The translations under genes and the position numbers were made by a program. Below are positions 10,934 through 64,000 of a DNA stretch of 64,000 nt, piece after piece. Source of the stretch: an uncultured bacterium (lineage in GTDB: Bacteria; Omnitrophota; Omnitrophia; Omnitrophales; Aquincolibacteriaceae); NCBI GenBank assembly GCA_964434115.1, contig CAYSSX010000004.1, forward strand, positions 17,684 through 81,683, written 5' to 3'. The first letter of the stretch is position 1. The number at the start of each line of letters is the position of its first letter. The notes below the pieces were generated by a model. That model made no database searches and was not told the origin of the DNA. It saw only the letters and a list, made by a program, of their open reading frames with translations.

Positions 10934-10984
10934 AAGGGGCAGGATTTTAGCAAAAGTGCCTCCTTAATGCAAGAAACCTTGTGG

Positions 10985-47581: not shown

Positions 47582-47878
47582 TTAAAGCGGTTGGTCTTTC
47601 TGGCAGTCGCTCCACACTACCTTGCGGAAAGTATCGTTTTCATCCATTAAAATCTCCAAACGCCGGCGGAGTTTTTTGATAAAAACGGCATCCTGCGGAT
47701 ACTTCTCTTTATTCACCAAAAGATCAATTCTCATCAGGTAATCATGAATCAAACGGCTGTTTTTCCGGATTTGGGCGCGGAGGATTTCCGATTCTTTTTC
47801 CGTGAGCCGTAAGGACTGCTCGTCGAGCTTAGGCTGGGTTTTAACGGGCGGGATGTCGGTGCCCAGATGGAACATCAT
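47582..47878 (-). CDS. Hypothetical protein.
   Basis: 98 aa. Its start overlaps the upstream gene's stop by 4 nt, suggesting translational coupling. No recognisable motif. Confidence 0.4.
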   Translation of the reverse strand: MMFHLGTDIPPVKTQPKLDEQSLRLTEKESEILRAQIRKNSRLIHDYLMRIDLLVNKEKYPQDAVFIKKLRRRLEILMDENDTFRKVVWSDCQKDQPL

Positions 47879-48366
47879 AGGGCGCTCCTCGCCAAAAGGT
47901 TTTCCAGATCGGTTAAAAAATCCGTCTTGAAATAAACGCGGTCGCAGCCGGCGCGCTGAGCTTCTTCCTTCACGCTGCGCTTGGACTGTGAAACAAATCC
48001 AAAAATAGGAAACTTTGCAGCCTGAGAAGATGTCTTGAGCGCCTCTAACAGCCGGAAAGCTTCGGCTTCACAGCCGTCGAAATCAAGAAACATCATCACG
48101 GGCTTGGTTTCCTGTAAGTGCTGAAGCAGCGATGCCGCACGGCTCGCGTTATGGACTTGCAGGTGGCACTTGCGCGCCGCGGCCGCAATTTTCGTGGCGA
48201 CCGGAACACTGGAGACAAGGCCGAGCACGAGCCCTGCTGACGGCTGCGTTTTTCCGGAGGAGAAAAGGTCGTCGTGAAAATCCGAGGCAAAGGATTTGCC
48301 CATAAGTGTTTTGGGAAGATCCTGCAGTAAAAAAGTTTTTTCAAGCTGCAAAGGAAAAGGTCTCAT
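47875..48366 (-). CDS. Response-regulator receiver (CheY-like) domain protein, atypical.
   Basis: 163 aa. VLGLVSS...PVMMFLDFDG...IFGFVSQSK...EEAQRAGCDRVYFK resembles a REC fold, with a phospho-acceptor-like Asp in DFDG. Confidence 0.4.
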   Translation of the reverse strand: MRPFPLQLEKTFLLQDLPKTLMGKSFASDFHDDLFSSGKTQPSAGLVLGLVSSVPVATKIAAAARKCHLQVHNASRAASLLQHLQETKPVMMFLDFDGCEAEAFRLLEALKTSSQAAKFPIFGFVSQSKRSVKEEAQRAGCDRVYFKTDFLTDLENLLARSAL

Positions 48367-48415
48367 ATCACGCCTTCGAATTAACTGAAATCCAAATCAA
48401 AAGCACTCTGAGAGA

Positions 48416-49762
48416 TTAACTCGATTTGGGAGCTGAATCAAGGTTTTGATTCGCAAGTTTGCGTATGACCTCAATCTTCGCCTTCGCATCCTCGCGCAAA
48501 GCCTTTGGGAAACGTACTTTTTGGAGAAGAGATTCCGCTTCCGCCCAATGACGCTCTTCAATCTGCGCCATGGCCTGCTCGTAAAACTTTCTCTGCTCCG
48601 CGGTCTTTTCCGGCAAAAGCGTCTCAAGCACCGCTTTTTTGGCCCTTAAGTCCTCCGAGATCGGGACAAGGTTGCCGATGGGCGGCGTTGGCGGCGTTAA
48701 AATATCCATCAAGGTCGCGCCAATGTCCCGGTCAATTTGCCGGATCGATTCCGGGTAGTTCGGCGCCGAACTGTCAGGCTTCACCGATTGCTCAAAGCCC
48801 GCTATTTTCTGTTCCAACTGTCCCGCGCTTTCCCAGGCCTCGGCCCAGGATTTTTTTTGCAGCAGTTCGCGGACAGCCAAATAGTCACGGCTAATTTCCT
48901 CTTCGCGCGACCGCAGCTGGCCTTCGATCAGCATCGTATTGAGGGCGCCGATTTTGGAGAGGGTATCATTGATGAATGGCCTCAGCATGGTGAGCGCCAC
49001 ACCGCGGTGCTTCATCGGATCCGGGCTGTAAAGCGGGAAGGCAAGCGCATTCACCCAGGAGTCGCGGGCTTTCAGAATATCTCCCGCAAGAAAAGCCTCT
49101 GACCCGGGCAGATACTGCGCTTTAAAAAGATCCATAATTTTTCCCTGGTAGCTTCTCGGGAAAGTGATTTTGTAGAATTGCTGCTGTTCAGCCAGCATTT
49201 TGGAAAAAGTTTCAATCGTCCATGCCTGCGAAGGCAGTTTTTGAACGGTTCCGGTCTGGAAGGACGCTTCTTTGGAAAGAATACCGGCTTGTTCCGGTGA
49301 AGGCTCTGGCGATTCCTGTACCGTGACGGCTTTAGAAAGCAGTTGTTCTTCTTCAGGAGAAAGACCCTGGACTGCTGCGGCCGGCGCCGAGGGAGCCGCC
49401 TCTCCGGCAGGTCCTTGAATGCCGGCAGGCGCCTCGATTTTCTTGTTTTCAGCCCGGCTCTTCAAGGAACCCATGACGGGTTTCAGAAAATTCCAGGCAA
49501 GAAATAAAAGAAGAACGGCGGCCAGAAAAAGAAAAACGGGCTTGAATGCCGCTCCCAAATTCACGGAAGGTTTGGGGAACGGCAAAGACACCGGTTTAAA
49601 AGATGCTTTTTCAGGCTTGGAAACCGGGGTCGCTTTCGCGGGACCACCGGTGTCAGGCTTCACGGACGTGCTCCAAAAACAGGAAGGGCACTCCACGATC
49701 TCGCGCTCTTCCGATTCAAAGCGTTTTCCGCAATGCGTGCAAAGGTATTTTTTCAGTGCCAT
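48416..49762 (-). CDS. Hypothetical membrane protein with an N-terminal zinc ribbon.
   Basis: 448 aa. CTHCGKRFESEEREIVECPSC, then a Pro/Ala/Ser-rich linker, a TM helix (FKPVFLFLAAVLLLFLAWNF) and a large C-terminal domain of unknown function. Confidence 0.5.
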   Translation of the reverse strand: MALKKYLCTHCGKRFESEEREIVECPSCFWSTSVKPDTGGPAKATPVSKPEKASFKPVSLPFPKPSVNLGAAFKPVFLFLAAVLLLFLAWNFLKPVMGSLKSRAENKKIEAPAGIQGPAGEAAPSAPAAAVQGLSPEEEQLLSKAVTVQESPEPSPEQAGILSKEASFQTGTVQKLPSQAWTIETFSKMLAEQQQFYKITFPRSYQGKIMDLFKAQYLPGSEAFLAGDILKARDSWVNALAFPLYSPDPMKHRGVALTMLRPFINDTLSKIGALNTMLIEGQLRSREEEISRDYLAVRELLQKKSWAEAWESAGQLEQKIAGFEQSVKPDSSAPNYPESIRQIDRDIGATLMDILTPPTPPIGNLVPISEDLRAKKAVLETLLPEKTAEQRKFYEQAMAQIEERHWAEAESLLQKVRFPKALREDAKAKIEVIRKLANQNLDSAPKSS

Positions 49763-50816: not shown

Positions 50817-50971
50817 AGCCCCATCCGATTCATGCCTTAAGGTTACTTTTTAAAACAGCGATAATCTAACACAAGTTTACTTGGCGGCTCCAAAGCTTGC
50901 AAAACCCTTGGGTTACGGCTAGGCTCTGAGAGCGGAACCAACCTTTTTAAAACAGAACTGTGGAAGCTCCT

Positions 50972-51685
50972 ATGTTCTTGTTCCTAAAGCTTTATCTAGC
51001 CCATCTCATCGGCGATTTCATCCTCCAGTTTGAGGAACTTTACCGTCTCAAAGTGAGAAGCTGGACCGGGCATGTCCTTCACGTCCTCATCCACGCCGCG
51101 GTTTCCGCCCTGTTCGTGATCCCCTTGTGGGGGCACCCTGGGGTGTGGCTCTTTATTGCCGGCGTGACGCTGATCCACCTGGCAGAGGACCTCCTTAAAT
51201 ACGCCCTGCAGCAAAAACACCCCCATTGGCGGTTTGTCCTTTTCACCGGAGACCAGCTGGTGCATGCCGGGGTCATTGCCGCGGTCTTCCTTTTTCCGAT
51301 CCACTTGCTTAAGGCGGGTTTCCCCAGCCATCCGGGACTTGATTTTTATTACTCCCAGGATGTCTGGACCCTTCTGGCCATTCTTTTTGTGTTCATCACT
51401 TTCGGCGCCGCGTACTTCCTTCACGCCTTCCGGCTCAACTATTTAAAGGACAGCCGGCAGGATCATTTCATCACGCGTTTTGAGATGATCCATGGCTTCA
51501 TTGAGCGCTCTCTCGTTGCAGGATTTTTTCTTTTCTTTCACCCAGGCATTGCTTTGGCCGTGTCTTTCGCGGCAGGCCTGCCCCGTTTCTTTTTTAGCAA
51601 ACTGCGCAGCAAAACAGATTTCGCACTGAGCGCGGGCTTTGCCGCGGCGCTCGGACTTCTCTTTAAAAACTGGATCCATTTTTGA
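50972..51685 (+). CDS. DUF3307 family membrane protein.
   Basis: MFLFLKLYLAHLIGDFILQ is the typical DUF3307 N-terminus, in a polytopic membrane protein. The start is chosen at the second ATG because GGAAG lies 7 nt upstream of it. Confidence 0.55.
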   Translation: MFLFLKLYLAHLIGDFILQFEELYRLKVRSWTGHVLHVLIHAAVSALFVIPLWGHPGVWLFIAGVTLIHLAEDLLKYALQQKHPHWRFVLFTGDQLVHAGVIAAVFLFPIHLLKAGFPSHPGLDFYYSQDVWTLLAILFVFITFGAAYFLHAFRLNYLKDSRQDHFITRFEMIHGFIERSLVAGFFLFFHPGIALAVSFAAGLPRFFFSKLRSKTDFALSAGFAAALGLLFKNWIHF

Positions 51686-51687
51686 AC

Positions 51688-52944
51688 ATGTCTGATCAAA
51701 CCGTCGCGAATCTCAAAAAGGTCCTGGCTGTGAATGCCAAGATCAATTCCACGCTCAACCTTGACGAACTGCTGGGTGTCATCATGACGGTTGCCGCGGA
51801 AGTCATGGATACAGAGGCCTCTTCTCTCATGCTGGTGGATGAAGCCTCTCAGGAACTGGTCTTTCGCGTGGCGCTCGGAGAAAAGGGCCGCGATCTGGTT
51901 GAAAAATTCCGCCTCAAGATCGGCGAAGGCATTGGCGGGCATGTTGCAAAAACAGGAGACTCAGTCATTGTGAATGACCCGCAGAACGATCCCCGCTTCG
52001 CCAAGCGCTTTGACAAGGCAACGGGCTTTTCAACGCAGGCCATTGTCTGTGTTCCGGTCAAAATCCGCGGCAAGGTCACGGGCGTCCTTCAAGCCATTAA
52101 CCCGCGCGGAAGAAAAATATTCGCCCCTGAGGACCTGGAGCTTTTTGAAACTTTTTCCGAACAGGCCGCGCTTTCCCTTGAAAACGCCCGGATTCACGGG
52201 GAATTGATCCGCCAGGAAAAAACAAAGCAGGAACTTTTGATTGCCCGCGACATTCAGCAGAACTTTCTTCCGGATCTCACCGAGAAAAATTTCCCCGCGG
52301 ACATTGCGGCTGAAAGCCTCCCCGCTTTGGAGGTCGGCGGTGATTTTTACGATGTCCTGCCGCTGGACGGCCGGAGGACCGGGCTTGTCATTGGTGATGT
52401 TTCAGGCAAAGGTGTTCCCGCGGCTCTCTACATGGTGAGGGTCATTTCCGAATACCGTTTTCTGGCCCCTCGGTGCAAAGGCCCGGCGGAACTTCTCACG
52501 GCCCTCAATCAATCGCTTGCCGCAAAGACCCAAAGAGGCATGTTTGTCACCCTTCTCTGCCTGTTCGTGGAAAATGATTCCGGGAAACTGCATTACGGGT
52601 TGGCGGGCCATCTGCCGCTGCTCAAAAGATCCGTGTCCGGAGAAACCGCCTTTTTGGGAGACGCCTCGGGGCTGCCCCTCGGGCTCATGCCCGAAGCCGA
52701 ATACAGCGAGGCCTCGCTTCAAACTTCGCCGGGAGATTTATTTTTGTTTTACACCGATGGGGTGACTGAGGCGAGAAACATCAAAGGGCAGGAATTCGGA
52801 GCGGAAAGCCTTGAAAATTTTATCAAAAACTCAAACGGGTCCGCCAAAGAAAGCGTCCAAGGCCTGATCGCTCATCTTCAGAAATTTACTTCGGGGGCCC
52901 CTCAGCACGACGACACCACAGCGCTCGCCCTTCGGATTCCCTAA
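51688..52944 (+). CDS. GAF-domain PP2C-type serine phosphatase (RsbU/SpoIIE family).
   Basis: N-terminal GAF domain (LDELLGVIMTVAAEVMDTEASSLMLVDE...). C-terminal PP2C/SpoIIE domain (VGGDFYDV, GDVSGKGVPAALYM, FLFYTDGVTEA). Confidence 0.85.
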   Translation: MSDQTVANLKKVLAVNAKINSTLNLDELLGVIMTVAAEVMDTEASSLMLVDEASQELVFRVALGEKGRDLVEKFRLKIGEGIGGHVAKTGDSVIVNDPQNDPRFAKRFDKATGFSTQAIVCVPVKIRGKVTGVLQAINPRGRKIFAPEDLELFETFSEQAALSLENARIHGELIRQEKTKQELLIARDIQQNFLPDLTEKNFPADIAAESLPALEVGGDFYDVLPLDGRRTGLVIGDVSGKGVPAALYMVRVISEYRFLAPRCKGPAELLTALNQSLAAKTQRGMFVTLLCLFVENDSGKLHYGLAGHLPLLKRSVSGETAFLGDASGLPLGLMPEAEYSEASLQTSPGDLFLFYTDGVTEARNIKGQEFGAESLENFIKNSNGSAKESVQGLIAHLQKFTSGAPQHDDTTALALRIP

Positions 52945-54062
52945 GGAATTGGAGCAAGCGTCTTCGGCAAAGTTAAGAGGAACGTGGTTCCCTGACCCGC
53001 CTCGCTTTGGATATGAATTTCCCCGCGGTGGCTTTTAACGGTCTTATCAATAATCATAAGTCCGAGCCCCGTTCCCTTGCGGCCCTTGGTTGAGAAAAAG
53101 GCTTCAAACAGCTTCGCGCGCACTTCCTCGCTCATCCCGACTCCATTGTCTGAAATGGAAATCTCATAAGACCCGGTGTCTTTGGACTTCGCGGCCACCC
53201 GTACCCAGCGGTTCTCTTTGGCCGTATCCACGGCCTCAATCGCGTTTTTGACCAGATTTAAAAGCGTCCGGTACAGCGCGCGTCGGTCCGCATCCACTTT
53301 CGGAAAATCCTGCTCCGTCGAAAAGCCGAGTTCGATCTTGTAATCCGCGGCTTTGTCCGTTAAATCTTCACGCAGATCGCGGAAAATTTCCTCAAGGTCT
53401 GTTTTTTCGGTTTCAAGGGCATAGTCCTTGGTCAAACTAAGCATGTCGAGCGTAAAACCATCGAGCTCCTTCAGCGCACGTTCAATATTGCGCATGCCCC
53501 GCTGAAGAAAATGTTCTTTTTTGTTTTCCATGCCGCGCTTGATGAAATCATAGGAAAGCCGTGCCAGCTGCATAATGTTTTTGATTTCATGGAGCACCAT
53601 GCCGGTCGTTTGTCCGACCGCCGCAAGACGTTCCATTTTGAGGTTTTCCTCAAACAGAAGCAGTGTCTTGAGTGAGCCTGCCATTTGGGCAGCCAGGCCC
53701 ACGGCAAGATCCAGGTCTTCCCGGACAAAGGCAGGCGCTCCGGGCCTGGTAAAAACCGCAACCCCGAGGACGGTATTCCCGGCAAACAGAGGCACGAAAA
53801 GCAGGCTGTCTTTCAGCCGGGGTTTGCCGTCCACAGCCACTTCCTGGGCTTCCGGCTGGACGGCTTTGGCGGCCGCCGGCTGATCAGGGACCGTCGAGGT
53901 CTCAAGCCAGAGACGGTCTTCGCGGCCCGAGAGAAAAAGATGTCCTTCCGGGGCATTCACAAATTTAGAAGTGCTTTCGAGAAAAAAACCGCACAAAGAG
54001 ACGCGATCCGTTAAGGATTGGTAAATTTTCCCGATTTCGTGGGCGGATTGAAAATCGTGCAT
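52941..54062 (-). CDS. GAF-domain sensor histidine kinase.
   Basis: 373 aa. N-terminal GAF domain. H-box LHEIKNIMQ. N, G1 and G2 boxes: NLVKNAIEA, DNGVGM and GTGLGL. Confidence 0.85.
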   Translation of the reverse strand: MHDFQSAHEIGKIYQSLTDRVSLCGFFLESTSKFVNAPEGHLFLSGREDRLWLETSTVPDQPAAAKAVQPEAQEVAVDGKPRLKDSLLFVPLFAGNTVLGVAVFTRPGAPAFVREDLDLAVGLAAQMAGSLKTLLLFEENLKMERLAAVGQTTGMVLHEIKNIMQLARLSYDFIKRGMENKKEHFLQRGMRNIERALKELDGFTLDMLSLTKDYALETEKTDLEEIFRDLREDLTDKAADYKIELGFSTEQDFPKVDADRRALYRTLLNLVKNAIEAVDTAKENRWVRVAAKSKDTGSYEISISDNGVGMSEEVRAKLFEAFFSTKGRKGTGLGLMIIDKTVKSHRGEIHIQSEAGQGTTFLLTLPKTLAPIP

Positions 54063-54180
54063 TCGGCCAATCTAATCCATGCTTTCCGGGAATGCAAGTC
54101 CTTCCCCGTTCAGGAACCTCAATTTTGAAGCCCTTTCAGCCGAACTTTAATACAGCCCAACCACGCTTAGAAGGAGTTGT

Positions 54181-54519
54181 ATGACTATTCAAATCGCTCA
54201 CAAAGAACCGGATATCCTTTGGGTGACCTTTGAAGGAGAGATGGATTACCACGTTTCCACTCACTTGAGGGACCAGATGAACAAAGTGCTGGAGACGAAA
54301 CCCTCCAAAATCCTCCTCGATTTCGCCAAGGTCACTTACATGGACAGCTCCGGCATCGCCGCGTTTGTGGAGTTTTCGCAAAAAGCAAAGGCCTTCCGCT
54401 CCCGGATTGTTTTTACCAGTCTTACGGAACCGGTGCGGCAGGTTTTTACGCTGGCCAAACTTCATCTTTTCTTCTCGATCGCGGGCTCGGAACAGGAAGC
54501 TCTCAAACTCCTGGCCTGA
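54181..54519 (+). CDS. STAS-domain anti-sigma-factor antagonist (SpoIIAA/RsbV-like).
   Basis: 112 aa. ILLDFAKVTYMDSSGIAAFVEF contains the conserved phosphorylatable Ser in the DSSG context. SD AAGGAG lies 6 nt upstream. Confidence 0.8.
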   Translation: MTIQIAHKEPDILWVTFEGEMDYHVSTHLRDQMNKVLETKPSKILLDFAKVTYMDSSGIAAFVEFSQKAKAFRSRIVFTSLTEPVRQVFTLAKLHLFFSIAGSEQEALKLLA

Positions 54520-56705
54520 TGAAGCGGCTGACTCCGGTTATTATTCCGCTTTTTTTTCTTGTGACCGCAGGCTTCCTCTTCGCCCGGATGCCGGAAGCCC
54601 TTGAGTCCGTCCGCCTCAAATATTTTGACACCCTGATGCGCTGGGAGCCCCGCGCCTACCAGGACCTTCCCGTCCGTATTATTGATATCGATGACGCAAC
54701 ACTTCAAAAGTTCGGGCAATGGCCTTGGCCGCGCAGTCTGACGGCCCGCCTGGTGGACAGGCTTCGTGAAGAAAAAGTTTCGGTCATCGCCTTTGACGTT
54801 CTCTTTGCTGAACCGGACCGCACCTCACCGGCAAATCTCGCCGCCCTCTGGTCCGGACAAACGAACAGTGACACCCTTGAAAAAATCCTGACTGAGCTTC
54901 CGGATCACGATCACCTTCTTGCCGAGGCCATTGGCAAAACCAAAGCCGTCACCGCGTTTACTCTGAGTTCCCGCAACACAGGCGGCACCCCGGCTCTTAA
55001 ATCAGGTTTCAGTTTTGCCGGGGACGACCCGCGCATGTACCTCCCGGATTTTCCAGGCACAGTCACAACACTTCCCGAGCTTGAAAACGCGGCCGCCGGA
55101 AACGGAATTATCACTTATCTCGCCGAGTATGACGGCACTGTCCGGGGGGTTCCTCTGGTCTACCAGCTGAGAGGCTCTCTTTACCCGGCCCTGGTGATGG
55201 AAGCTGTACGGATTCATATCGGAACCCGCAATTACAGCCTTCAATCCACGGCCTCCAGCGGAGAAATTCAAATGGGCGAACACGCGGGCCTTCTGAGAGT
55301 CAAAGTCGGCAAAACGATTATCCCGACCGACCCCACGGGAAGACTGCGGCTTTATGACTCAGGATACATTGCCCCAAGAACCGTCCCCGCCTGGCAGGTT
55401 CTGGAAAATAAAATTCCCCTGGGCGGCCTGGAAGGAAAAATCGTTTTCATTGGCACCAGCGCAGCGGGCCTCAAGGATATCCGCGCAACGCCGCTGAACC
55501 CTGCGGCGGCCGGCGTGGAAGTTCATGCCCAGCTCGCAGAGCAAATTTTAAGCGGCGTTTATCTCTACCGTCCTGACTGGGCGGAAGGAGCCGAATTCAC
55601 TTTCTTTCTTGCGGTGGGCTTGCTCATGATTATTTTCATGGGACGCTTGGGGGCTGCAGGCTCGGCCGTGCTTGGGGCTCTTTCGGTCGCCGCCTTTTAC
55701 GGCTTCAGCCTTTACGGTTTTCATCATCTCCGCTGGCTTGTCGACCCAACGCTTCCGTCCATTGCTTCGCTTGTTATTTATACGGTGTCGTCCCTGATTC
55801 ACTTTTTGCGTACGGACCGTGAGAAACAGCAGATCCGAAGCGCCTTTGGCCGCTACCTGGCGCCTTCCCTTGTGAAAGAACTGGCCCAGCACCCGGACCG
55901 TCTTAAACTCGGCGGGGAAATGAAAGTCATGTCCGTTCTTTTCGCGGATATCCGGAATTTCACGGCCCTTGCCGAGCGCATGAAACCAGAGGAGCTGACT
56001 GTGTTTCTAAACCGCTTCCTCACCCCCATGACAAGCACCATCCTTCAGCACAACGGCACTATCGACAAGTACATGGGCGATTGCGTGATGGCTTTCTGGA
56101 ACGCACCGGTAGAAGATCCCGAACACGCTTTTCACGCCTGTCTAACGGCCCTGGAAATGCAGAAGGCCCTTGTCGGGCTTAATAAAAACCAGGAGCCTGT
56201 GAACATGGGCATCGGCATTAACACAGGATCGTGCTGCGTCGGCAATTTGGGGTCGGACCAGCGCTTTGACTACTCCGTGATTGGCGACACGGTGAATATC
56301 GCATCACGCCTGGAGGGGTTGTCACGGCTTTACGGCGTTAATATTTTGGCAGGTCCTGAAACTTTTGCTCTGACAGGCCACCTGTTCTTTTTTCTCGAAG
56401 CGGACCAAGTGCGGGTCAAAGGCCGCCAGGGATCTGTCCGTGTTTACACTTTGATTGGAAAAATTGAAGAATTCGATGCGGCCTTGCGTCAGTCGTGGTC
56501 TGAGCAGCATTCTGAAATGCTTTCTGCCTACCGCTCCCGCGAATGGGACAAAGCCGAGCGCGCGGCACAAGCCTGCCTTAAAACAGGGGGGTCGGCATTG
56601 AGTCTTGCACCGCTCTATCAGTTTTATTTGGAGAAAATTGAGGCTTTCCGGAAAGAACCGCCGGCCGCGGGATGGGAAGGAATTACGGTCGCGTCCGCAA
56701 AATAA
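54519..56705 (+). CDS. CHASE2-domain membrane adenylate/guanylate cyclase (class III).
   Basis: 728 aa. N-terminal TM, a periplasmic CHASE2 region, a TM bundle, then a cyclase domain (FADIRNFTALAE, KYMGDCVMAFWNAP, GINTGSCCVGNLGSDQRFDYSVIGDTVNIASRLEG). The start ATG overlaps the STAS stop as TGATG. Confidence 0.85.
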   Translation: MKRLTPVIIPLFFLVTAGFLFARMPEALESVRLKYFDTLMRWEPRAYQDLPVRIIDIDDATLQKFGQWPWPRSLTARLVDRLREEKVSVIAFDVLFAEPDRTSPANLAALWSGQTNSDTLEKILTELPDHDHLLAEAIGKTKAVTAFTLSSRNTGGTPALKSGFSFAGDDPRMYLPDFPGTVTTLPELENAAAGNGIITYLAEYDGTVRGVPLVYQLRGSLYPALVMEAVRIHIGTRNYSLQSTASSGEIQMGEHAGLLRVKVGKTIIPTDPTGRLRLYDSGYIAPRTVPAWQVLENKIPLGGLEGKIVFIGTSAAGLKDIRATPLNPAAAGVEVHAQLAEQILSGVYLYRPDWAEGAEFTFFLAVGLLMIIFMGRLGAAGSAVLGALSVAAFYGFSLYGFHHLRWLVDPTLPSIASLVIYTVSSLIHFLRTDREKQQIRSAFGRYLAPSLVKELAQHPDRLKLGGEMKVMSVLFADIRNFTALAERMKPEELTVFLNRFLTPMTSTILQHNGTIDKYMGDCVMAFWNAPVEDPEHAFHACLTALEMQKALVGLNKNQEPVNMGIGINTGSCCVGNLGSDQRFDYSVIGDTVNIASRLEGLSRLYGVNILAGPETFALTGHLFFFLEADQVRVKGRQGSVRVYTLIGKIEEFDAALRQSWSEQHSEMLSAYRSREWDKAERAAQACLKTGGSALSLAPLYQFYLEKIEAFRKEPPAAGWEGITVASAK

Positions 56706-58373
56706 TCAGGAAGCGCCTGCCTGAAGACTCGCTGTTCCGGACCCTGTATCACTTTTGCCTTGCGTCGAGTTTTCAATGCTCAGGGTGTGATTCACAGAAT
56801 CCCCGCCGTTTTGAAAGCTCAAATTTAAACTCCCGGTCGTATCGCCAGAATAGTCTGCAGACAACCCAGTGATGTTTTTTATAGCGTCTCCGCTAAGCCC
56901 TGTAAAAGAGACAATCGAACTTAAGGCGAAGTTGAATGCGCTCCCGCTGTTAAATTGGGTGCTGGTCACTTGCACGTTGGAATTTCCCCCGCCAATCGTG
57001 CGGCTTCCAAAATTAATGTCGACAGTGAGGGTGTAGCTCCCATGGGTCATGGTTCCGCTTCCTGTATAGTGGGAAGTTCCAACTTCTGTCCTCGCCCGGA
57101 GCTGATCAAACGTGGCCTGCCCGGTGAGTTGCTGAGTGATGGTGGTGGAGGTACCGGTTCTATCCCCAGCATCAAGGGACGATGTCGTCGATTGAGTAAA
57201 AAGATCATTGTTGATTTGATTGACTTGAGAAAGGTCCCGCAAAAAGTCATAGGCCACCACTTTATCCTGCTGTGCCTGTTGAGTGGCGCTTTTCATATCC
57301 GGTAGAGCAGGTCTTTCTTGCGGTGCCCCGCCCATCATCGGCTTTAAATGTCCTGGAGACATGGTTTCCCCCGCTGAACCAGGCACTGGAGGAGCTCCCG
57401 GAGGAGGGCCCATCAAAGCTGTTTTGCCCGTGCTTCCAGAAGCCGGAGCACTTTCACCCTCGCTGGCGGCGGGACGGGCCGGCTTATCCCCATCCTTCCG
57501 GTCGGCAGGCGCGGCTGAATTATCCCTTTCCGGGGACTTCGGCTCTTCACTTTTTGCCGGATCCTTGGTTTGACCTGAACTTTTATCGTCTGTGCTTTCG
57601 GATTTTGTTTCCTTGGCGGGTTCTGCCGCCTGGGACTCTGCCGGGTTCACAGACGCGATCATTTGTTCCACTTGTTCCCGGGGCACTTCAAAAGCCGCGG
57701 TGGGCGCAATGTTTTCGCCTCCAATGAAAGTCCCGAAGCCGGATTTTTTGACTTCCGTCTCCACATTTTTTCCATTCACATCGTTGCTGACAATAATCCG
57801 GCCTTGGCGATGGCCCGTATTGTTTTTCTCACCCGGGCCTAAAAGCAAAATCAGCGAACTGTCTCCTTCCACTTTCCCGTAGAAAATAGTGCCGCGCACG
57901 CCGACGGATCCTGTCGGCAGCTTGATTTCCACATTGCTCGGCTTTTTGTGCGCAATCTGGCCCGTAATAAAACGGAAGACTCCCTTGACGACACGCGCGT
58001 CAATTTTCCCGTCAAAGGTCGCGGGATCATAAACAAAAGTATCAATGACAATGGCGCTATTGGGCCCTATCGTAAAAACCGTCTCATCCAGAAGCAGGAT
58101 CTGCAACTGGCCTTTGCCATCCGTGCTGACCTCGTCTCCAAGATAAATCGGCTCACCGCTGCCGGCAATACGCCCCACCTGGCCTGATTTGGCGATTTGA
58201 ACAGACCCTCGTGCGGCCGCGACAACCCCGACAAGGCCTGTTGGGAGAGTCGCCGAAACCGGTGCTGCCGCAGGCATCACTTGGGCAAAAAGAACATTTT
58301 GAGCAGGAAAAGATAGAAGCAGGCTGACCAAAAAGGAAAGGGTTTGAAAAGCGTTCTTTTTAAGGGTTTTCAT
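56706..58373 (-). CDS. Secreted FecR-domain protein with a Pro/Ser-rich linker and a Ser/Thr/Gly-rich C-terminal domain.
   Basis: 555 aa. Signal peptide. FecR-like beta-sandwich (IYLGDEVSTDGKGQLQILLLDETVFTIGPNSAIVID). Low-complexity PAPS linker. C-terminal T/S/G-rich, probably beta-rich, region. Confidence 0.55.
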   Translation of the reverse strand: MKTLKKNAFQTLSFLVSLLLSFPAQNVLFAQVMPAAAPVSATLPTGLVGVVAAARGSVQIAKSGQVGRIAGSGEPIYLGDEVSTDGKGQLQILLLDETVFTIGPNSAIVIDTFVYDPATFDGKIDARVVKGVFRFITGQIAHKKPSNVEIKLPTGSVGVRGTIFYGKVEGDSSLILLLGPGEKNNTGHRQGRIIVSNDVNGKNVETEVKKSGFGTFIGGENIAPTAAFEVPREQVEQMIASVNPAESQAAEPAKETKSESTDDKSSGQTKDPAKSEEPKSPERDNSAAPADRKDGDKPARPAASEGESAPASGSTGKTALMGPPPGAPPVPGSAGETMSPGHLKPMMGGAPQERPALPDMKSATQQAQQDKVVAYDFLRDLSQVNQINNDLFTQSTTSSLDAGDRTGTSTTITQQLTGQATFDQLRARTEVGTSHYTGSGTMTHGSYTLTVDINFGSRTIGGGNSNVQVTSTQFNSGSAFNFALSSIVSFTGLSGDAIKNITGLSADYSGDTTGSLNLSFQNGGDSVNHTLSIENSTQGKSDTGSGTASLQAGAS

Positions 58374-58433
58374 GGCTCTAGAGAAAGGGTACCCCCAGGG
58401 CGGGGCCTTTTCAATCCAGGAGGCTTTAAAAGG

Positions 58434-59972
58434 CTAAAATTCCAGCTTTTTACTGAGCATCAGCTGGTACTTATTATTGAGGTAGGTGTAATTGGTGATA
58501 TTGGACAGGGACCGGTAGTACTCGTAACTGAACGTAAAGAGAATGTCCTTAAAGGGTTTCGGCAAAACCTTCCCAATCAGGAGCGTCTCCAATGGCGCAC
58601 CATAAGTGACGCGGTACCGGAGAGAGTTATCGTGCCTGAGACGTCCGGCAATGGCCACTTCGGGCTCATCGTAGACATCTCGCCCGAGATCCACTCCATT
58701 AATAATGAACTGCCCTTTTCCCAAAAGCCAGGTGTGTCCCAGCCGGATCATCAGGCGCTGATAGGCATTGTAATCAGCTTTCGCATTTTTCTTGCCGTAG
58801 ACCAAGCTCACATGAGCGCTCATGGCGGGAGTCAAAACCACGTTTGCGCCGTTTTCCAGCTCAAAATAATTCCCACGCCGTTCATGCGCCGTCGTGTTTT
58901 CTGAAATATCCGAAAAGTCCTGGCGTTCAATGCGGCTCTCCGAAAAAACATTCACTCTTTTTCCAACGCCGCGGCTCAGATTAAAGCTTCCGCCTTGAGA
59001 CCGGAGAAAAGTCTCGTCCGACAAGAAAACATGGCTGGCATAAAACTGCGGGGTGAATTGAAACCACTTGGGTTTCCAAACGCCCCCGAGGTTGTATTGA
59101 AAAGAACCCAGTGACAAAGACCGCACCCTCTTTTGTTCCTGCAAATAATGCGTGAAAGTGGCGAACACCTCATGCCCTTCCTGAAAACCAAGATCATGAT
59201 GGACTTCCGCGCCGCTGATCACCAAGAGACTGGGGTCACTCTTGCGGGCGCTTGACCCTGACACGGGCAGCAGGGAGTCCGCGAACAGGCGGTTTTTCGA
59301 AGACGGAGCCGCGTTGCGGTTGGAATCGATTTCAAACCCCGTGCTTTGCCGGAAAACCAGATGGGTTCTGCGGACGCGGTAGGCGATGCGCTTGTGATAC
59401 TCATTAATTTCCGCGCGCAGGCTGTCAGGAATATCTTTCTGCTGAAGAAGGACATCAATTTCGCGGCGGGCCTCACTCCAATTATCAAGACGAAAAAGAA
59501 CCACCGCGTAAAACAGGCGGACTCTTGCCAGGGTAGGATCGATCAAGAGGATCCGCTCAAGGGTGGCCGCAGCGCCAAGGAGATTATTTTCCGCCACCTG
59601 ATTCTGCGCATATTGAAAATTAAGCAGAATGTCGTCGGGACTTTTTAAAACATCCTGATAAGTCACCTTCTCGAGGGTCTGGATCGTGCCCTTTTTCCGG
59701 GCTTCAGCCGCCGTACGCTGAACTTCGGTCTGAGTTTTCGTTTCCTGGCGCAAAAAACCGATTTCGTTTTCCTTCTGCTCGGCATACCCCGGAGATGAAA
59801 AACAAAAAACGGCTCCCCAAAAGACAAAAAACAAGCCGATTCCGGAAAAGCGGACTTGCAGCCTTCTAAGAAGTGAACGGGATGGGGTTAATCTGGATAA
59901 AATCATCTTTATAAGGACGGCCACCCGCGCCAAAAAGTGAAGCGGACTAATTTGGTCTGACTGCGGAGACAA
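58434..59972 (-). CDS. Outer-membrane protein with N-terminal TPR-like region and C-terminal beta-barrel (Slam/DUF560-like).
   Basis: 512 aa. Signal peptide (GIGLFFVFWGAVFCFSSPGYA). TPR-like helices in the first ~170 aa. Alternating amphipathic beta strands thereafter. C-terminal ...KKLEF with a terminal Phe, an OMP signature. Confidence 0.5.
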   Translation of the reverse strand: MSPQSDQISPLHFLARVAVLIKMILSRLTPSRSLLRRLQVRFSGIGLFFVFWGAVFCFSSPGYAEQKENEIGFLRQETKTQTEVQRTAAEARKKGTIQTLEKVTYQDVLKSPDDILLNFQYAQNQVAENNLLGAAATLERILLIDPTLARVRLFYAVVLFRLDNWSEARREIDVLLQQKDIPDSLRAEINEYHKRIAYRVRRTHLVFRQSTGFEIDSNRNAAPSSKNRLFADSLLPVSGSSARKSDPSLLVISGAEVHHDLGFQEGHEVFATFTHYLQEQKRVRSLSLGSFQYNLGGVWKPKWFQFTPQFYASHVFLSDETFLRSQGGSFNLSRGVGKRVNVFSESRIERQDFSDISENTTAHERRGNYFELENGANVVLTPAMSAHVSLVYGKKNAKADYNAYQRLMIRLGHTWLLGKGQFIINGVDLGRDVYDEPEVAIAGRLRHDNSLRYRVTYGAPLETLLIGKVLPKPFKDILFTFSYEYYRSLSNITNYTYLNNKYQLMLSKKLEF

Positions 59973-60050: not shown

Positions 60051-60698
60051 ATGGCACAACTCTTTCCAAAACACTCAAACACTCTTGCGAAGCTCGGCAC
60101 GCTCGGCGTCTTATTGACCCCGTTTGTGGTGGGCATCATCCTTTATGTCCTTTCGCGTTCTGTTTACTCAACAGATGTCGGAATGTCAAAGGAACAGCCG
60201 ATTCCTTTCAGCCACAAGCACCACGTTGAAGGGCTGGGCATCGACTGCCGCTACTGCCATACGTCTGTTGAGAAATCTTCTTTCGCGGGCATTCCACCGA
60301 CCAAGACTTGTATGAACTGCCATTCCGGGATATGGACCAACGCTCCGATGCTTGAGCCGGTCCGGGAAAGTTTTCGCACGAATCAATCTTTGACTTGGAA
60401 CCGCGTCCACAATCTCGGAGATTTTGTTCAGTTCAATCACAGCATCCATATATCCAAAGGCGTGGCTTGCACAACCTGCCACGGCCAGGTCAACGAAATG
60501 CCCTTGATGCGCCGCGCCAACCGCCTGCAAATGGAATGGTGCTTGTCATGTCACCGGGCTCCTGAAAAATTTATTGGTCCCAAAGATAAGGTTTTTGATC
60601 CCCACTGGAAAGCGGCCAACCAGGCAGAACTTGGCCCGGAACTTGTTTCTCAATACAATGTTAAGAAACTCACCAACTGCAGCGTCTGCCACAGATAA
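60051..60698 (+). CDS. actA: Membrane-anchored pentaheme cytochrome c (alternative complex III ActA-like).
   Basis: 215 aa. N-terminal TM anchor and five CxxCH motifs (CRYCH, CMNCH, CTTCH, CLSCH, CSVCH). Confidence 0.8.
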   Translation: MAQLFPKHSNTLAKLGTLGVLLTPFVVGIILYVLSRSVYSTDVGMSKEQPIPFSHKHHVEGLGIDCRYCHTSVEKSSFAGIPPTKTCMNCHSGIWTNAPMLEPVRESFRTNQSLTWNRVHNLGDFVQFNHSIHISKGVACTTCHGQVNEMPLMRRANRLQMEWCLSCHRAPEKFIGPKDKVFDPHWKAANQAELGPELVSQYNVKKLTNCSVCHR

Positions 60699-60708
60699 GG
60701 TGTCATTC

Positions 60709-63700
60709 ATGAACGAAGACCATCCGATTTCAAAAATCCGGGAAAAGCTGGCCAAATTGAAAGGCCCTCTTTTCTGGCGCAGTCTGGATCAGGTGGCTGA
60801 AACCGAGGAATTTACCCGGTTTCTGAAAGAAGAGTATCCTTACGGCGCGGCCGTGTCGGATTCCCCTGTGGATAGACGTGAGTTCTTGAAATTGATGGGC
60901 GCTTCCTTAGTTATGGCAGGGCTTGCCGGCTGCAAACCCCGTGATCTTGAAAAAATCATCCCGTATGTAAAAGCTCCGGAGGACATGATCCCGGGCAAAC
61001 CCCTCTTTTTTGCCACGGCCATGCCCTTTCAAGGGTCTGCCCTCGGGCTTCTTGTTGAAAGCCATATGGGACGCCCCACAAAAGTGGAGGGCAATCCCCA
61101 GCATCCTGACAGCCTGGGAGCCACCAGCGCTTTTGCCCAAGCCTCTATTTTGGGCCTTTATGATCCTGACCGCTCCAAAGCTGTCCGTAATGGCTCTCAA
61201 GCTTCCACTTGGGCCCGTTTTACAGAAGAACTTTCCAGTGAAATGGCTTTATTGAAAGCTTCTGAGGGCGAGGGATTAAGTATTTTGACAGAAACCGTGG
61301 TTTCCCCCACACTCGGCGCCCAGATCAAAAAGCTTCTTGCGGAATACCCCAAGGCTAAATGGCATCAATATGAACCTGTCAACCGCGACAGTCTTCGCGG
61401 GGGTTCGAAACTGGCTTTAGGGGAATACAGGGACCTTCTCTATGATTTTAAGAAGGCCGACGTTGTGGTTTCATTTAACAGTGACTTTCTTACAGAGCTT
61501 CCGGGAAGTCTGCGTTACGCGCGCGATTTTACACTTAGGCGCCAGGTCATCGCAGGAACGGGATTGGACAAAAATGCTTCCGCCCTCCCCCTCAACCGTC
61601 TTTATGTTATTGAAAGCACCCCGACCTCAACGGGAACCGTTGCGGATCACAGAATCCCTAAAAAGCCTTCTGAAATTCCCGCTTTGGTAGCGGCCCTTGC
61701 CGCGAAGCTGGGAATTGAAGTTCCTCAAGGGGTTTTTGCCGCCCTCAAACCGAATGAGGAACCTTTAATCGCCGCTTTGGCCGAAGACCTGAAAGCCAAT
61801 CCTTCTAAAACCATTGTTGTCGCGGGCCCCGATCAGCCAGCCGCTGTTCATGCTCTTATTCACGCCATTAACGGGTCACTCGGGAATTTCGGTTCCACGA
61901 TTACCGCGATTGCCCCAGTTGAAGAAAATCCGGAAGAACAGACAGCCTCTATCCGGGATTTAACCCAGGATCTTGTTAAAGGAAAAGTCCAGCTCCTTGT
62001 GGTTCTTGGCGGAAATCCGGTCTACAACGCACCGGCCGACCTTGAGTTCAGCAGTAATTTCCAGCTCGCGGAACGCCGCGTTCACCTGAGTCTGTATGAC
62101 GACGAAACATCCGCTCTTTCCCACTGGCACATTCCGCAGGCTCATTACCTTGAAAGCTTTTCGGACGGCCGCGCGAGCGATGGCACTTTGACGTTTATGC
62201 AGCCCTTGATCGCGCCGCTTTATGATGGAAAATCCGCTCATGAATTTTTGGCCGCCATGCTCGGAGAGCCGGCAGCAAAGGATTACGACCTTGTCAGAAG
62301 CCGTTGGCAGGAATCCTGGAAAGAAGGGGATTTTGAGAAACAGTGGCGCAGGGCTCTCCATGAAGGTCTTGTAAAAGACAGTGCCTTTGAAGCGAAAAAG
62401 GTTTCTGTCAAAACCGCTTTCTCGCAAGCTGAACTTAAAGAGGGCCTTCCTGCTCTTTCCGGCAATGACTTAGAAGTTCTTTTCCGCCCTGACCTCACGG
62501 TGTGGGACGGGCGTTTCGCAAATTACGGATGGCTTCAGGAACTTCCCAAGCCTATGACGACCCTGACCTGGGACAATGCGGCGCTTGTGAGTCCGGCCAC
62601 CGCTGAGAAGCGTTCTCTCCAAAACGAAGACGTTGTGGTTCTTGAGCTGGGCGGCCGTGCGGTTGAAGCACCTGTATGGATCACGCCCGGACAAGCGGAG
62701 GACACGGTCACCGTTCATTTGGGCTATGGCAGAACGAAGGCTGGTAAAGTCGGGGATGACATCGGTTTTAATACCTATAAACTGAGAACTTCCGCGCGCC
62801 CTGAATTTGCTCAGGGGCTTAGCCTCACCAAAGTCGGTTCCAAGCGCAAATTGGCGGCGGCCCAGGACCATCATTCCATGGAAGGCCGTAATCTTGTACG
62901 GAAAGCCAATCTTGCGGAATTCCAGCATCATCCTGAGTTTGCTTTGGGTCATGGCCACGGCACGGGAAACACTTCGCTTTATCCCAAGTACAATTATTCC
63001 GAATACGCCTGGGGCATGGCCATTAACCTTAACGCCTGCATCGGCTGTAATGCCTGTGTGGCGGCTTGCCAATCCGAAAACAACATCCCCGTTGTCGGGA
63101 AAAGCCAGGTTCTTCTTGGCCGCGAAATGCATTGGCTGCGCATTGACCGTTATTACGAGGGCGGTCTGGACAGCCCTGAAATCCACCATCAGCCGGTCAT
63201 GTGCATGCACTGCGAGAACGCCCCCTGCGAGCCGGTGTGTCCCTTCGGAGCCACAGGCCACAGCAATGAAGGCCTCAATGAGATGACCTACAACCGCTGC
63301 GGCGGGACCAAATACTGTGCGAATAACTGTCCCTACAAAGTCCGCCGTTTTAATTTCCTGGAATACACCGACAGGAACACGGAAACGCTGAAAATGCAGC
63401 GCAACCCGGATGTCACCGTCCGCGCCAGGGGCGTCATGGAAAAATGTACTTTCTGCGTGCAGAGAATTAACCACGCGCGCATTGATGCGAAGATTGATGG
63501 CCGCAAAATCCGTGACGGAGACATCCGCACAGCCTGTCAATCCGCGTGCCCGACAAACGCCATTGTTTTCGGGGACATCAATGATCCTGAAAGCCAAGTG
63601 TCAAAACTCAAATCAGCGCCTCTTAACTACGGCATCCTGACTGAGCTTAATACCTTCCCCCGCTTAACTTATTTGGCCAAAGTGATGAACCCTAATCCAA

Positions 63701-63738
63701 AACTGACAGAGAATGCAGCCCATGGCCTCCACGCCTGA
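60709..63738 (+). CDS. actB: Alternative complex III subunit B (molybdopterin-oxidoreductase-like domain fused to a 4Fe-4S ferredoxin domain).
   Basis: Tat signal RREFLKLMGASLVMAGLAGC. Large molybdopterin-family domain. C-terminal ferredoxin Cys clusters (CIGCNACVAAC, CMHCENAPCEPVCP, CGGTKYCANNCP, CTFCVQR...CQSACP). Start taken at ATG 60709 (SD AAGGTG) rather than the track's 60574, which overlaps actA. Confidence 0.85.
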   Translation: MNEDHPISKIREKLAKLKGPLFWRSLDQVAETEEFTRFLKEEYPYGAAVSDSPVDRREFLKLMGASLVMAGLAGCKPRDLEKIIPYVKAPEDMIPGKPLFFATAMPFQGSALGLLVESHMGRPTKVEGNPQHPDSLGATSAFAQASILGLYDPDRSKAVRNGSQASTWARFTEELSSEMALLKASEGEGLSILTETVVSPTLGAQIKKLLAEYPKAKWHQYEPVNRDSLRGGSKLALGEYRDLLYDFKKADVVVSFNSDFLTELPGSLRYARDFTLRRQVIAGTGLDKNASALPLNRLYVIESTPTSTGTVADHRIPKKPSEIPALVAALAAKLGIEVPQGVFAALKPNEEPLIAALAEDLKANPSKTIVVAGPDQPAAVHALIHAINGSLGNFGSTITAIAPVEENPEEQTASIRDLTQDLVKGKVQLLVVLGGNPVYNAPADLEFSSNFQLAERRVHLSLYDDETSALSHWHIPQAHYLESFSDGRASDGTLTFMQPLIAPLYDGKSAHEFLAAMLGEPAAKDYDLVRSRWQESWKEGDFEKQWRRALHEGLVKDSAFEAKKVSVKTAFSQAELKEGLPALSGNDLEVLFRPDLTVWDGRFANYGWLQELPKPMTTLTWDNAALVSPATAEKRSLQNEDVVVLELGGRAVEAPVWITPGQAEDTVTVHLGYGRTKAGKVGDDIGFNTYKLRTSARPEFAQGLSLTKVGSKRKLAAAQDHHSMEGRNLVRKANLAEFQHHPEFALGHGHGTGNTSLYPKYNYSEYAWGMAINLNACIGCNACVAACQSENNIPVVGKSQVLLGREMHWLRIDRYYEGGLDSPEIHHQPVMCMHCENAPCEPVCPFGATGHSNEGLNEMTYNRCGGTKYCANNCPYKVRRFNFLEYTDRNTETLKMQRNPDVTVRARGVMEKCTFCVQRINHARIDAKIDGRKIRDGDIRTACQSACPTNAIVFGDINDPESQVSKLKSAPLNYGILTELNTFPRLTYLAKVMNPNPKLTENAAHGLHA

Positions 63739-64000
63739 TCCTAAAGACGCCGTAAAACCCGTCCCCTACATCGATGCCTCTGCCCATACCTATGGGGGAA
63801 TCAGCGATAAAATAGCGGACTTTGTTCTGAAGCGCCCGATTGGCAAAGGCTGGCTTGCGGGGCTGGGAGTTGCCTCCGCGGGCCTCACGCTGCTGATCTG
63901 CGCAATCCTGCTTGTCCTCCTCAAGGGCGTCGGCGTCTGGGGTATCAACCAGCCTGTAGGCTGGGGTTTTGACATCATCAACTTTGTTTGGTGGATCGGT
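63722..64000 (+). CDS. actC: Alternative complex III subunit C (NrfD/PsrC-like membrane subunit), N-terminal fragment.
   Basis: MASTPDPKDAV...GVWGINQPVGWGFDIINFVWWIG is a typical NrfD-family first TM helix. It continues beyond the window. The start could be ATG 63713. Confidence 0.75.
   Translation, partial: MASTPDPKDAVKPVPYIDASAHTYGGISDKIADFVLKRPIGKGWLAGLGVASAGLTLLICAILLVLLKGVGVWGINQPVGWGFDIINFVWWIG

Follow-up and report, generated by a model that had tools for sequence, protein, structure and literature searches.

Within a 64,000-nucleotide stretch of a contig from an uncultured Omnitrophota bacterium (hereafter the window), four neighbouring genes at positions 51688-56705 encode a phosphatase with GAF and PP2C domains (GAF-PP2C), a GAF-like histidine kinase, a STAS protein and a nucleotide cyclase with a CHASE2 domain. 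All four were confirmed by open reading frame (ORF) translation and Pfam searches. The gene cluster is real and not the product of chance, and its make-up suggests a partner-switch module wired to cyclic AMP (cAMP) signalling. Our best explanation of the locus as a whole, which we hold tentatively, is a cAMP signalling node in which the flow would run from the cyclase to cAMP, from cAMP to the PP2C phosphatase, and from there through the STAS protein to a partner. An initial annotation made from the sequence alone had placed the phosphatase and the STAS protein upstream of the cyclase. The cAMP-type GAF domain of the phosphatase suggests instead that cAMP is an input to that enzyme and not only an output of the system. 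The conserved partner of the cyclase is the GAF-PP2C protein, which accompanies it also at loci that have no STAS gene.

Organization of the cluster and properties of its proteins

The conserved cluster consists of nine parts and spans 50960-59972. It is wider than first annotated, as it also takes in a DUF3307 gene (50960-51685) on one side and genes for a FecR protein and a TPR/beta-barrel protein (56706-59972) on the other. The gene order is DUF3307, GAF-PP2C, histidine kinase, STAS, cyclase, FecR and TPR/beta-barrel protein, with the kinase gene and the last two genes on the minus strand. The parts are as follows.

50960-51685, plus strand: DUF3307 polytopic membrane protein (Pfam PF11750, E 2.9e-15; about five hydrophobic segments), abutting the GAF-PP2C gene on its upstream side
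51682/51688-52944, plus strand: GAF-PP2C serine phosphatase of the SpoIIE/RsbU type (Pfam SpoIIE, E 2.5e-49; GAF, E 1.2e-19)
52941-54062, minus strand: soluble GAF-like sensor histidine kinase, 373 aa (Pfam HATPase_c, E 1.1e-25; weak GAF match, E 2.2e-6)
54063-54180, no strand: divergent kinase-STAS intergenic region of 118 bp, the presumed site of both promoters
54181-54519, plus strand: single-domain STAS protein, 112 aa (Pfam STAS, E 2.1e-19), with a DSSG motif that includes Ser56
54517-54521, plus strand: TGATG stop/start overlap of the STAS and cyclase genes, read directly from the sequence
54519-56705, plus strand: CHASE2 and class III (IIIb-like) adenylate cyclase, 728 aa (CHASE2, E 2.7e-54; Guanylate_cyc, E 1.6e-25)
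56706-58373, minus strand: FecR-domain periplasmic protein (Pfam FecR, E 2.9e-9), with an N-terminal hydrophobic signal or anchor at residues 12-30
58434-59972, minus strand: TPR protein and probable beta-barrel outer-membrane protein (Pfam TPR_19, E 4e-6; TPR_Slam and DUF2860 below their cut-offs)

The STAS and cyclase genes have one base in common. At their junction, read as GCC TGA TG AAG, the STAS stop codon occupies 54517-54519 and the cyclase ATG 54519-54521. A GGAG Shine-Dalgarno sequence lies 7 nt ahead of the STAS ATG and none is obvious ahead of the cyclase ATG, which fits translational coupling of the two genes. Both the parts list and the TGATG coupling of the initial annotation were borne out by Pfam and by direct reading of the sequence. 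The phosphatase and kinase genes had also been described as immediately adjacent; they are, but the kinase gene is on the opposite strand. Because it is convergent with the PP2C gene (4-nt overlap) and divergent from the STAS gene (118-bp spacer), it lies outside the STAS-cyclase transcript. The FecR gene is convergent with the cyclase gene and abuts its stop codon.

The cyclase is predicted to be catalytically complete and active. A lack of catalytic residues had been named in the initial annotation as a finding that would speak against its reading; in an alignment of 25 orthologues, the metal ligands D477 and D521, together with K517 (in TIDKYMGD), N593 and R597, were invariant. The closest solved structures of the catalytic domain were the Cya2-derived pair 6FHT and 2W01 and CyaB of Pseudomonas aeruginosa (3R5G). 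K517 aligns with a Lys of 6FHT ('Bacteriophytochrome, Adenylate cyclase') and with CyaB, while 2W01, near-identical in other respects, has Glu at this position, and Ser586 (FDYSVIGD) takes the position of the Thr in the CyaB motif DYTIIG. We take this pairing of Lys with Ser or Thr to mark class IIIb adenylate cyclases, and it is the basis of the IIIb assignment made here. Because the catalytic set is full and includes the ATP-specifying Lys, the predicted product is cAMP; of the two outputs first proposed, cAMP or cyclic GMP (cGMP), only the former is retained. Hydropathy places a transmembrane segment at residues 3-25, followed by the periplasmic CHASE2 domain, further transmembrane segments at about 354-430 and the cytoplasmic cyclase domain. 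A periplasmic CHASE2 domain flanked by transmembrane segments, with FecR and outer-membrane protein genes adjoining, has the composition of a CHASE2-FecR envelope-sensing module. The TPR/barrel orthologue at another Omnitrophota locus (L089; comparison loci carry L numbers) matched both DUF2860 and a beta-barrel porin model.

In the phosphatase, the PP2C metal motifs GGDFYD, GDVSGKG, YTDG and HDDTT are intact and are kept in orthologues, as is expected of the PP2C component of a partner switch. The top solved match of its GAF domain was Lcd1 of Leptospira interrogans (5W10, E 1.9e-26, 37% identity), followed by CyaB2 of Anabaena (1YKD, cAMP, E 6.8e-24), the GAF-B domain of PDE10A (cAMP), and PDE5 and PDE2A (cGMP). 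All top solved matches, with E values from 1.9e-26 to 2e-16, were GAF domains that bind cyclic nucleotides. An NKFDE-like stretch reads N-P-x5-F-x2-E-D in this domain and N-R-x5-F-x2-E-D in Lcd1. By sequence, then, the domain belongs to the group of GAF domains that bind cyclic nucleotide monophosphates (cNMP), and the phosphatase is probably cAMP-sensing. The 5W10 structure is that of the Lcd1 GAF domain (PMC11800159), a cAMP receptor that activates its attached enzyme (PMC8846402). The likeness to Lcd1 and CyaB2 is confined to the GAF domain, as the outputs of those proteins are a diguanylate cyclase and an adenylate cyclase, respectively, and not a PP2C phosphatase.

The STAS protein matched the NCBIfam model for anti-sigma factor antagonists (ant_ant_sig) with 65.9 bits against a cut-off of 53.45. 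It aligned end to end with SpoIIAA structures, and D55-S56-S57-G58 fell on the DSSG phosphoserine motif of SpoIIAA, in agreement with the phosphoserine context first read from the sequence. YMDSSGIA was invariant in 8/8 STAS homologues. The protein is thus predicted to be phosphorylatable at Ser56, as the STAS component of a partner switch would be. No second STAS gene was detected in the window by a search with a STAS hidden Markov model (HMM).

The core of the kinase matched ZraS, ThkA and KinB, with the phospho-accepting His aligned, and its best NCBIfam matches were AtoS, PrsK and ZraS. The H-box, ERLAAVGQTTGMVLHEIKNIMQ, was near-invariant and its His (HEIKN) invariant in 8 orthologues, and it aligned with HEIRNPL of ZraS. 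The catalytic N, G1, F and G2 boxes are present as NLVKNAIEA, DNGVGM, FEAFFSTK and GTGLGL. By these features the protein is a canonical soluble histidine kinase and not a serine kinase of the RsbW or HsbR type. That it might be a disguised RsbW was considered and rejected, given the near-invariant H-box, the best matches to ZraS, AtoS and KinB, and an E value of 6.8 against an RsbW HMM. No Response_reg domain was found by Pfam among the window genes, and so the window holds no cognate response regulator.

In four lineages (the window, L081, L083 and L091), the spacer between the kinase and STAS genes contains TTGCAAG some 35-45 nt away from the start of the kinase gene, and CCTCAAT and TTTCAGCCGAA are common to two or three of these. 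A CRP-like palindrome or a sigma-54-like site was sought in the spacer and only such short common motifs were found. A scan for consensus sigma-70 promoters and terminators gave no signal above chance in the spacer, and an Rfam scan found only a tRNA.

Conservation and history of the linkages

The STAS relatives at 47-85% identity were all encoded in the same order, that is, DUF3307, GAF-PP2C, the oppositely oriented kinase, STAS, cyclase, and the inverted FecR and barrel genes. The full arrangement was present at L081-L085 and L090-L093, all from Omnitrophota. The STAS and cyclase genes overlapped in all clade loci, at a junction of TGATG, TAATG or ATGA (e.g. L081, L083, L085, L091, L092 and L093). 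As the STAS-bearing loci are syntenic over 20 kb and neighbour-joining groups the STAS-linked cyclases in a single clade, the conservation of the linkage reflects one event.

We compared these loci with 80 CHASE2-cyclase loci from Alphaproteobacteria, Elusimicrobiota and others (no Omnitrophota were among the matches listed), whose neighbours were searched with phmmer and the STAS HMM; Omnitrophota contexts were taken from exact-protein look-ups. A STAS neighbour occurred at 0/80 loci of other phyla among the matches listed and at 0/6 further Omnitrophota cyclase loci. The proposed conservation of the linkage thus held within the clade, where all nine loci keep the overlap despite cyclases down to 52% identity, but not beyond it, as the linkage was absent from the 86 other loci. 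Attachment of the STAS gene is a young innovation of a single clade in Omnitrophota. The kinase gene followed the same pattern: kinase and STAS occurred together at 9/9 clade loci, and the 6 other cyclase loci of Omnitrophota had neither.

The link between GAF-PP2C and the cyclase is older and wider. At L171 the PP2C stop codon overlaps the cyclase start (ATGA, 4 nt) with no STAS or kinase gene between them, in the same lptFG-glgC synteny as in the window. L089 has PP2C followed by the cyclase across a 366-bp gap, again with no STAS gene, and at L087 the PP2C gene (inverted), cyclase, FecR, barrel protein and DUF3307 genes lie together in a different chromosomal context. The phosphatases of these STAS-less loci are true orthologues (474-485 bits, about 55% identity), while other PP2Cs, including the RsbW-linked ones, scored at most 326 bits with about 39% identity to the window protein. 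DUF3307 accompanies GAF-PP2C and the cyclase at all PP2C-linked Omnitrophota loci, including the rearranged L087. Because orthologous phosphatase genes adjoin the cyclase gene where STAS and kinase are lacking, the ancestral operon was GAF-PP2C followed by the cyclase, and a cassette of the divergent kinase and STAS genes was inserted once at the junction.

This history bears on the reading that adjacency is all there is, which we judge unlikely. It holds that the kinase-STAS cassette became fixed in the PP2C-cyclase junction, that the overlap reflects operon compaction, and that the STAS protein is a second substrate of the phosphatase or a paralogue of the MlaB-like STAS protein, with RsbW or an Mla-type ATPase elsewhere as its target. 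One insertion event accounts for all cases, the STAS protein gave a weak match to an MlaB model, and its closest relatives (43-47% identity), those in Omnitrophota among them, are linked to RsbW and Mla genes. The cyclase sequences also agree with it: we looked for a clade-specific residue or indel in the cytoplasmic half of the STAS-linked cyclases, found none, and recovered only two clade-diagnostic positions, both in the periplasmic CHASE2 domain, so that the cytoplasmic domain has no co-adaptive signature. However, the cassette and the overlap have been retained where the cyclases are only 52-63% identical, the STAS protein is under comparable purifying constraint (55-85% identity), and the insertion lies exactly between a STAS-acting phosphatase and the conserved partner of that phosphatase.

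CHASE2 receptor cyclases have been described (PMC5498481), and CHASE2-FecR operons have been recorded (PMC5192318). FecR adjoined the cyclase at about 28/80 CHASE2-cyclase loci of other phyla among the matches listed, and also at Omnitrophota loci with enough downstream flank. The TPR/barrel protein co-occurs with FecR beside CHASE2 cyclases in several phyla.

Other Omnitrophota cyclase loci are built differently. In a second type, a Lactamase_B gene and a DUF6901 gene precede the cyclase in place of DUF3307 and GAF-PP2C (L088 8416-10004, L170 5617-7175 and L172 6401-7962). DUF6901 overlaps the cyclase start in L088 and may be another cyclase partner, and in L170 a cNMP_binding-FHA protein is divergent from the cyclase. 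At L089 12239-13819, a single-domain response regulator and a hybrid kinase (receiver, HisKA and HATPase_c) are inserted between the cyclase and FecR genes, and this is a second, independent entry of two-component genes into the cluster.

Proteins that bind cyclic nucleotides are frequent near these cyclases, at about 10/80 CHASE2-cyclase loci among the matches listed. In Parvibaculum (L026, 14208-15563), a CHASE2 adenylate cyclase gene is followed, 2 kb downstream, by the gene of a cNMP_binding-PP2C protein, and a FecR gene lies alongside; the PP2C protein is an independent analogue of the window phosphatase. In an alphaproteobacterial metagenome-assembled genome (L009, 8630-9868), a GAF-HD (HD_5) protein is encoded directly upstream of a CHASE2 cyclase. 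Both proteins are candidate cAMP effectors or phosphodiesterases. Since the GAF domain of the window phosphatase best matches cAMP- and cGMP-binding GAF domains, since the PP2C-cyclase linkage exists where STAS is absent, and since cNMP-binding proteins, such as those of L026 and L009, often neighbour CHASE2 cyclases, the phosphatase is more likely to be a cAMP receptor downstream of the cyclase, instead of or in addition to an input to it.

Relatives of the STAS protein and the source of a serine kinase

Canonical partner switches of the RsbU-RsbV-RsbW and SpoIIE-SpoIIAA-SpoIIAB type share with the window a DSSG STAS protein and a SpoIIE/RsbU-type PP2C with intact metal sites. They differ in their kinase and their target. 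An HMM built from 82 RsbW-type kinases and run on all frames of the window detected no RsbW-type kinase (best E 0.71), and Pfam scans of the window gave no HATPase_c_2 match. The sole sigma factor in the window is RpoD-like (3930-5225, about 46 kb from the cluster). The initial annotation was therefore correct in reporting neither an RsbW/SpoIIAB kinase or anti-sigma factor nor an alternative sigma factor here. RsbW, a defining component of a canonical partner switch, is thus lacking within 64 kb. As to the target of the switch, the cyclase is a candidate by gene overlap only.

Outgroup STAS relatives (at most 47% identity; 76 loci) were collected from a metagenome scan. An RsbW-type HATPase_c_2 kinase preceded about 52/76 of them, often with a GAF-PP2C before the kinase. 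MlaE, MlaF and MlaD followed about 37/76, sometimes with an ATP-binding cassette (ABC) auxiliary lipoprotein (ABC_trans_aux), and about 14/76 were tandem STAS pairs. STAS orthologues that consistently adjoin a sigma/anti-sigma pair had been named in the initial annotation as evidence that would speak against it; a sigma factor adjoined 0/76, and linkage to RsbW and Mla genes was found instead. Tandem STAS genes with no adjoining RsbW-type kinase occurred at L114, L118, L120, L123, L126, L129, L133, L136, L141, L146, L150, L151 and L159.

The full order, with the outer members optional, is GAF-PP2C, RsbW, STAS, MlaE, MlaF, MlaD and ABC_trans_aux (L094 7366-10410, L163 5882-11887, L173 8001-11110, L175 8001-11067 and many of L094-L169). 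These clusters resemble a partner switch whose target is a lipid ABC transporter of the Mla type, with STAS in the position of MlaB. Those of L094, L163, L173 and L175 hold the closest STAS relatives (at most 47% identity) and the next-closest GAF-PP2C (about 39%), and they too have a target other than a sigma factor. They differ from the window cluster in having RsbW upstream of STAS and the Mla ABC transporter downstream, where the window has an opposite-strand histidine kinase and the cyclase. A study of the MlaFB structure lists phospho-regulation of MlaB as an open question (PMC7367683), and the gene order of the RsbW-STAS-MlaEFD clusters provides direct genomic support for such regulation. 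At the end of one such cluster, L098 encodes a 648-aa fusion of CHASE2 to PP2C (SpoIIE) at 10603-12549; from its domains, a CHASE2 envelope sensor may there drive the partner-switch phosphatase directly, with no cyclase.

On contigs with an RsbW that NCBI assigns to Omnitrophota, this gene follows ribBA-ribH-nusB-ribD-ribE and precedes STAS, MlaE, MlaF and MlaD, and there is no phosphatase. The cluster is conserved in other Omnitrophota. Its unlinked RsbW-type kinase is the best candidate to phosphorylate the cyclase-linked STAS protein, and could plausibly do so. For an unlinked STAS kinase there is a precedent from experiments in Anabaena (PMC13555669).

It is also conceivable, and in our assessment very improbable, that the adjacent histidine kinase replaced the missing serine kinase and phosphorylates STAS Ser56 directly or via phospho-His. 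The joint presence of kinase and STAS at every clade locus and their joint absence from the 6 other Omnitrophota loci agree with this, as does the position of the kinase, which is that of RsbW in related PP2C-RsbW-STAS clusters. The GHKL fold is common to histidine kinases and kinases of the RsbW type. However, the DHp H-box is complete and near-invariant, the N, G1, F and G2 boxes are ordinary, the matches are to ZraS, AtoS and KinB and not to RsbW, the gene is transcribed divergently, and the co-occurrence reflects a single event. No case in which a canonical histidine kinase phosphorylates the serine of a STAS protein is known to us, although our literature searches were not aimed at this question.

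A broader hypothesis, doubtful at present, joins the two kinds of cluster in a partner switch gated by cAMP. The RsbU-type phosphatase would read the cyclase product with its GAF domain, in this clade the STAS paralogue would close the loop onto the cyclase, and throughout Omnitrophota the cyclase-linked PP2C would also serve the phosphatase-less RsbW-STAS-MlaEFD system. Envelope signals received by the CHASE2, FecR and outer-membrane proteins would then tune outer-membrane lipid transport by way of cAMP and the phosphorylation of MlaB-like STAS proteins.

Signal flow, comparison with known systems and significance

In the explanation that we favour, a cAMP signalling node, an envelope signal would pass from the outer-membrane TPR/barrel protein to the periplasmic FecR-like protein and on to CHASE2, and would set the activity of the cyclase. 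The cAMP formed would bind the GAF domain of the neighbouring PP2C and switch the phosphatase on, and PP2C would remove the phosphate from STAS Ser56. Dephosphorylated STAS would then engage a partner. Because STAS is translationally coupled to the cyclase, the cytoplasmic domain of the cyclase would be the simplest and most economical partner, and feedback dependent on cAMP would result. Such action of STAS on the cyclase is plausible and is the least certain step. The STAS protein would be reset by a serine kinase outside the cluster, for which the RsbW-type kinase of the rib-rsbW-STAS-mlaEFD cluster is the best candidate, and the histidine kinase would be a parallel output or input that works through an unlinked response regulator.

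Several observations weigh against this explanation. Each step of the flow is read from domains and gene order, and the case for cAMP binding by the PP2C GAF domain rests on an identity of 37% with Lcd1. A single insertion brought STAS and the cyclase together, and genes that overlap are not easily parted later; conservation of the overlap is for that reason weak evidence for physical contact. The lack of a clade-specific residue or indel in the cytoplasmic half of the STAS-linked cyclases also counts against the explanation. RsbW homologues on the source contig or its sister contigs numbered 0/57, and the explanation does not account for the co-inserted histidine kinase.

Alternatively, the STAS protein may act as an upstream regulator of the cyclase in the style of HsbA-HsbD or SiaC-SiaD, a possibility to which we give limited weight. 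One form of STAS would bind the cyclase and activate or inhibit it, PP2C and a further kinase would adjust STAS phosphorylation according to a ligand other than cAMP, and cAMP would be purely an output. The stop-start overlap kept in all clade members, the intact Ser56 and PP2C catalytic motifs, and the regulation of non-sigma targets, namely Mla transporters, by relatives of this STAS protein are in keeping with such a role, and examples of nucleotide cyclases under the control of STAS-like proteins are known (PMC5085249, PMC7647112). Against it, the linkage of GAF-PP2C to the cyclase, and even their translational coupling, is found in lineages that have no nearby STAS, and the phosphatase-cyclase relation is for that reason independent of this STAS protein. 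The cNMP-binding type of the GAF domain, the lack of clade-specific change in the cytoplasmic region of the cyclase, and the count of STAS neighbours at the other CHASE2-cyclase loci (0/86 among the matches listed) also argue against it. The two directions, STAS upstream of the cyclase and cAMP upstream of the phosphatase, are not mutually exclusive, and STAS control of the cyclase would be compatible with the cAMP node if feedback exists.

The initial annotation had compared the locus with HsbR-HsbA-HsbD circuits, known from the HptB pathway of P. aeruginosa. What holds is that a nucleotide cyclase goes together with a PP2C and a small phosphoprotein, but the kinase is a canonical histidine kinase, the cyclase is of class III, and the cluster is a member of neither the Hsb nor the Sia system. 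In the Hsb system, too, a single-domain STAS protein is encoded near a cyclase; HsbA was reported to interact with the cyclase HsbD, and a PP2C sets the HsbA phospho-state (PMC5085249, PMC6482189). HsbD, however, is a GGDEF diguanylate cyclase and the window cyclase a class III Guanylate_cyc protein. HsbR combines a receiver, a PP2C and a serine kinase and is fed by a phosphorelay, whereas the window PP2C carries a GAF domain, contains neither a receiver nor a kinase domain, and has no linked serine kinase. HsbA also acts via FlgM and sigma factors, and the window has no sigma or anti-sigma gene near the cluster. SiaABCD, likewise of P. aeruginosa, differs in having a diguanylate cyclase (SiaD) and an operon that includes the gene of the kinase SiaB; its SiaC protein is not known to belong to the STAS family. 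The resemblance is that a PP2C, a kinase and a small phosphoprotein control a cyclase of the same operon (PMC7647112); the NCBIfam SiaA match of the window PP2C was weak (E 6e-9, 35 bits against a 700-bit cut-off).

CyaD1, CyaD2 and CyaK of Sinorhizobium meliloti have the same combination of CHASE2 and a class III cyclase and were described with neither STAS nor PP2C (PMC5498481). The Burkholderia BiofilmReg operon has the same CHASE2-FecR pairing, but its CHASE2 protein is a histidine kinase (PMC5192318). PP2C proteins fused to GAF or cNMP domains have been catalogued as architectures only (PMC2887360). Our literature searches for a STAS protein linked to a class III cyclase, or for a cAMP-gated PP2C/STAS pair, found neither and returned only two-hybrid methods sections or domain catalogues.

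Elsewhere in the window, Pfam identified ordinary chromosomal genes, namely those of the RpoD-like sigma factor, PPDK, glyQS, uvrA, panC, folK, recO, phoH, aspS, hisS, lptFG and glgC. At 60051-64000 on the plus strand, the gene of a multihaem protein of the cytochrome c7 type precedes that of a 1,054-aa molybdopterin/4Fe-4S protein, and in relatives NrfD comes next. The set resembles a module of the alternative-complex-III type, and it is conserved beside the cluster in the STAS clade. Three ORFs (98, 163 and 448 aa) at 47582-49762 on the minus strand had no significant Pfam match, with weak N-terminal zinc-ribbon matches in the 448-aa product, and at every related Omnitrophota locus the three are found in synteny, flanked by glgC and the signalling cluster. 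A 5,404-aa ORF at 10985-27196 on the minus strand encodes an unusual multi-enzyme protein, whose N-terminal 1,732 aa had no Pfam match and whose remainder has RmlD/epimerase, phosphotransferase (APH-like), PLP-dependent (PALP), weak protein-kinase and histidine-phosphatase domains. At 1-2947 on the minus strand, an incomplete ORF of 982 aa or more runs off the window start; it had no Pfam match.

Partner switches were first understood as regulators of sigma factors, and STAS proteins are now known to act on diguanylate cyclases, a glycosyltransferase and the MlaF ATPase. The literature searched describes no STAS gene coupled in translation to a class III adenylate cyclase, and no PP2C that has a cAMP-type GAF domain and is wired to such a cyclase. 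If the proposed flow is right, the cluster would for the first time connect cAMP signalling with partner switching by STAS proteins. RsbW kinases and PP2C phosphatases flanking MlaB-like STAS proteins in many lineages bear on the question of Mla phospho-regulation (PMC7367683), and if the cAMP-gated switch that also serves Mla transport were true, three systems not connected before would be joined and phospho-regulation of MlaB-type STAS proteins would become testable. For Omnitrophota, of which we know no cultured representatives, the flow proposed here would, if right, offer a defined biochemical entry to signalling, as four soluble domains of the cluster are expressible.

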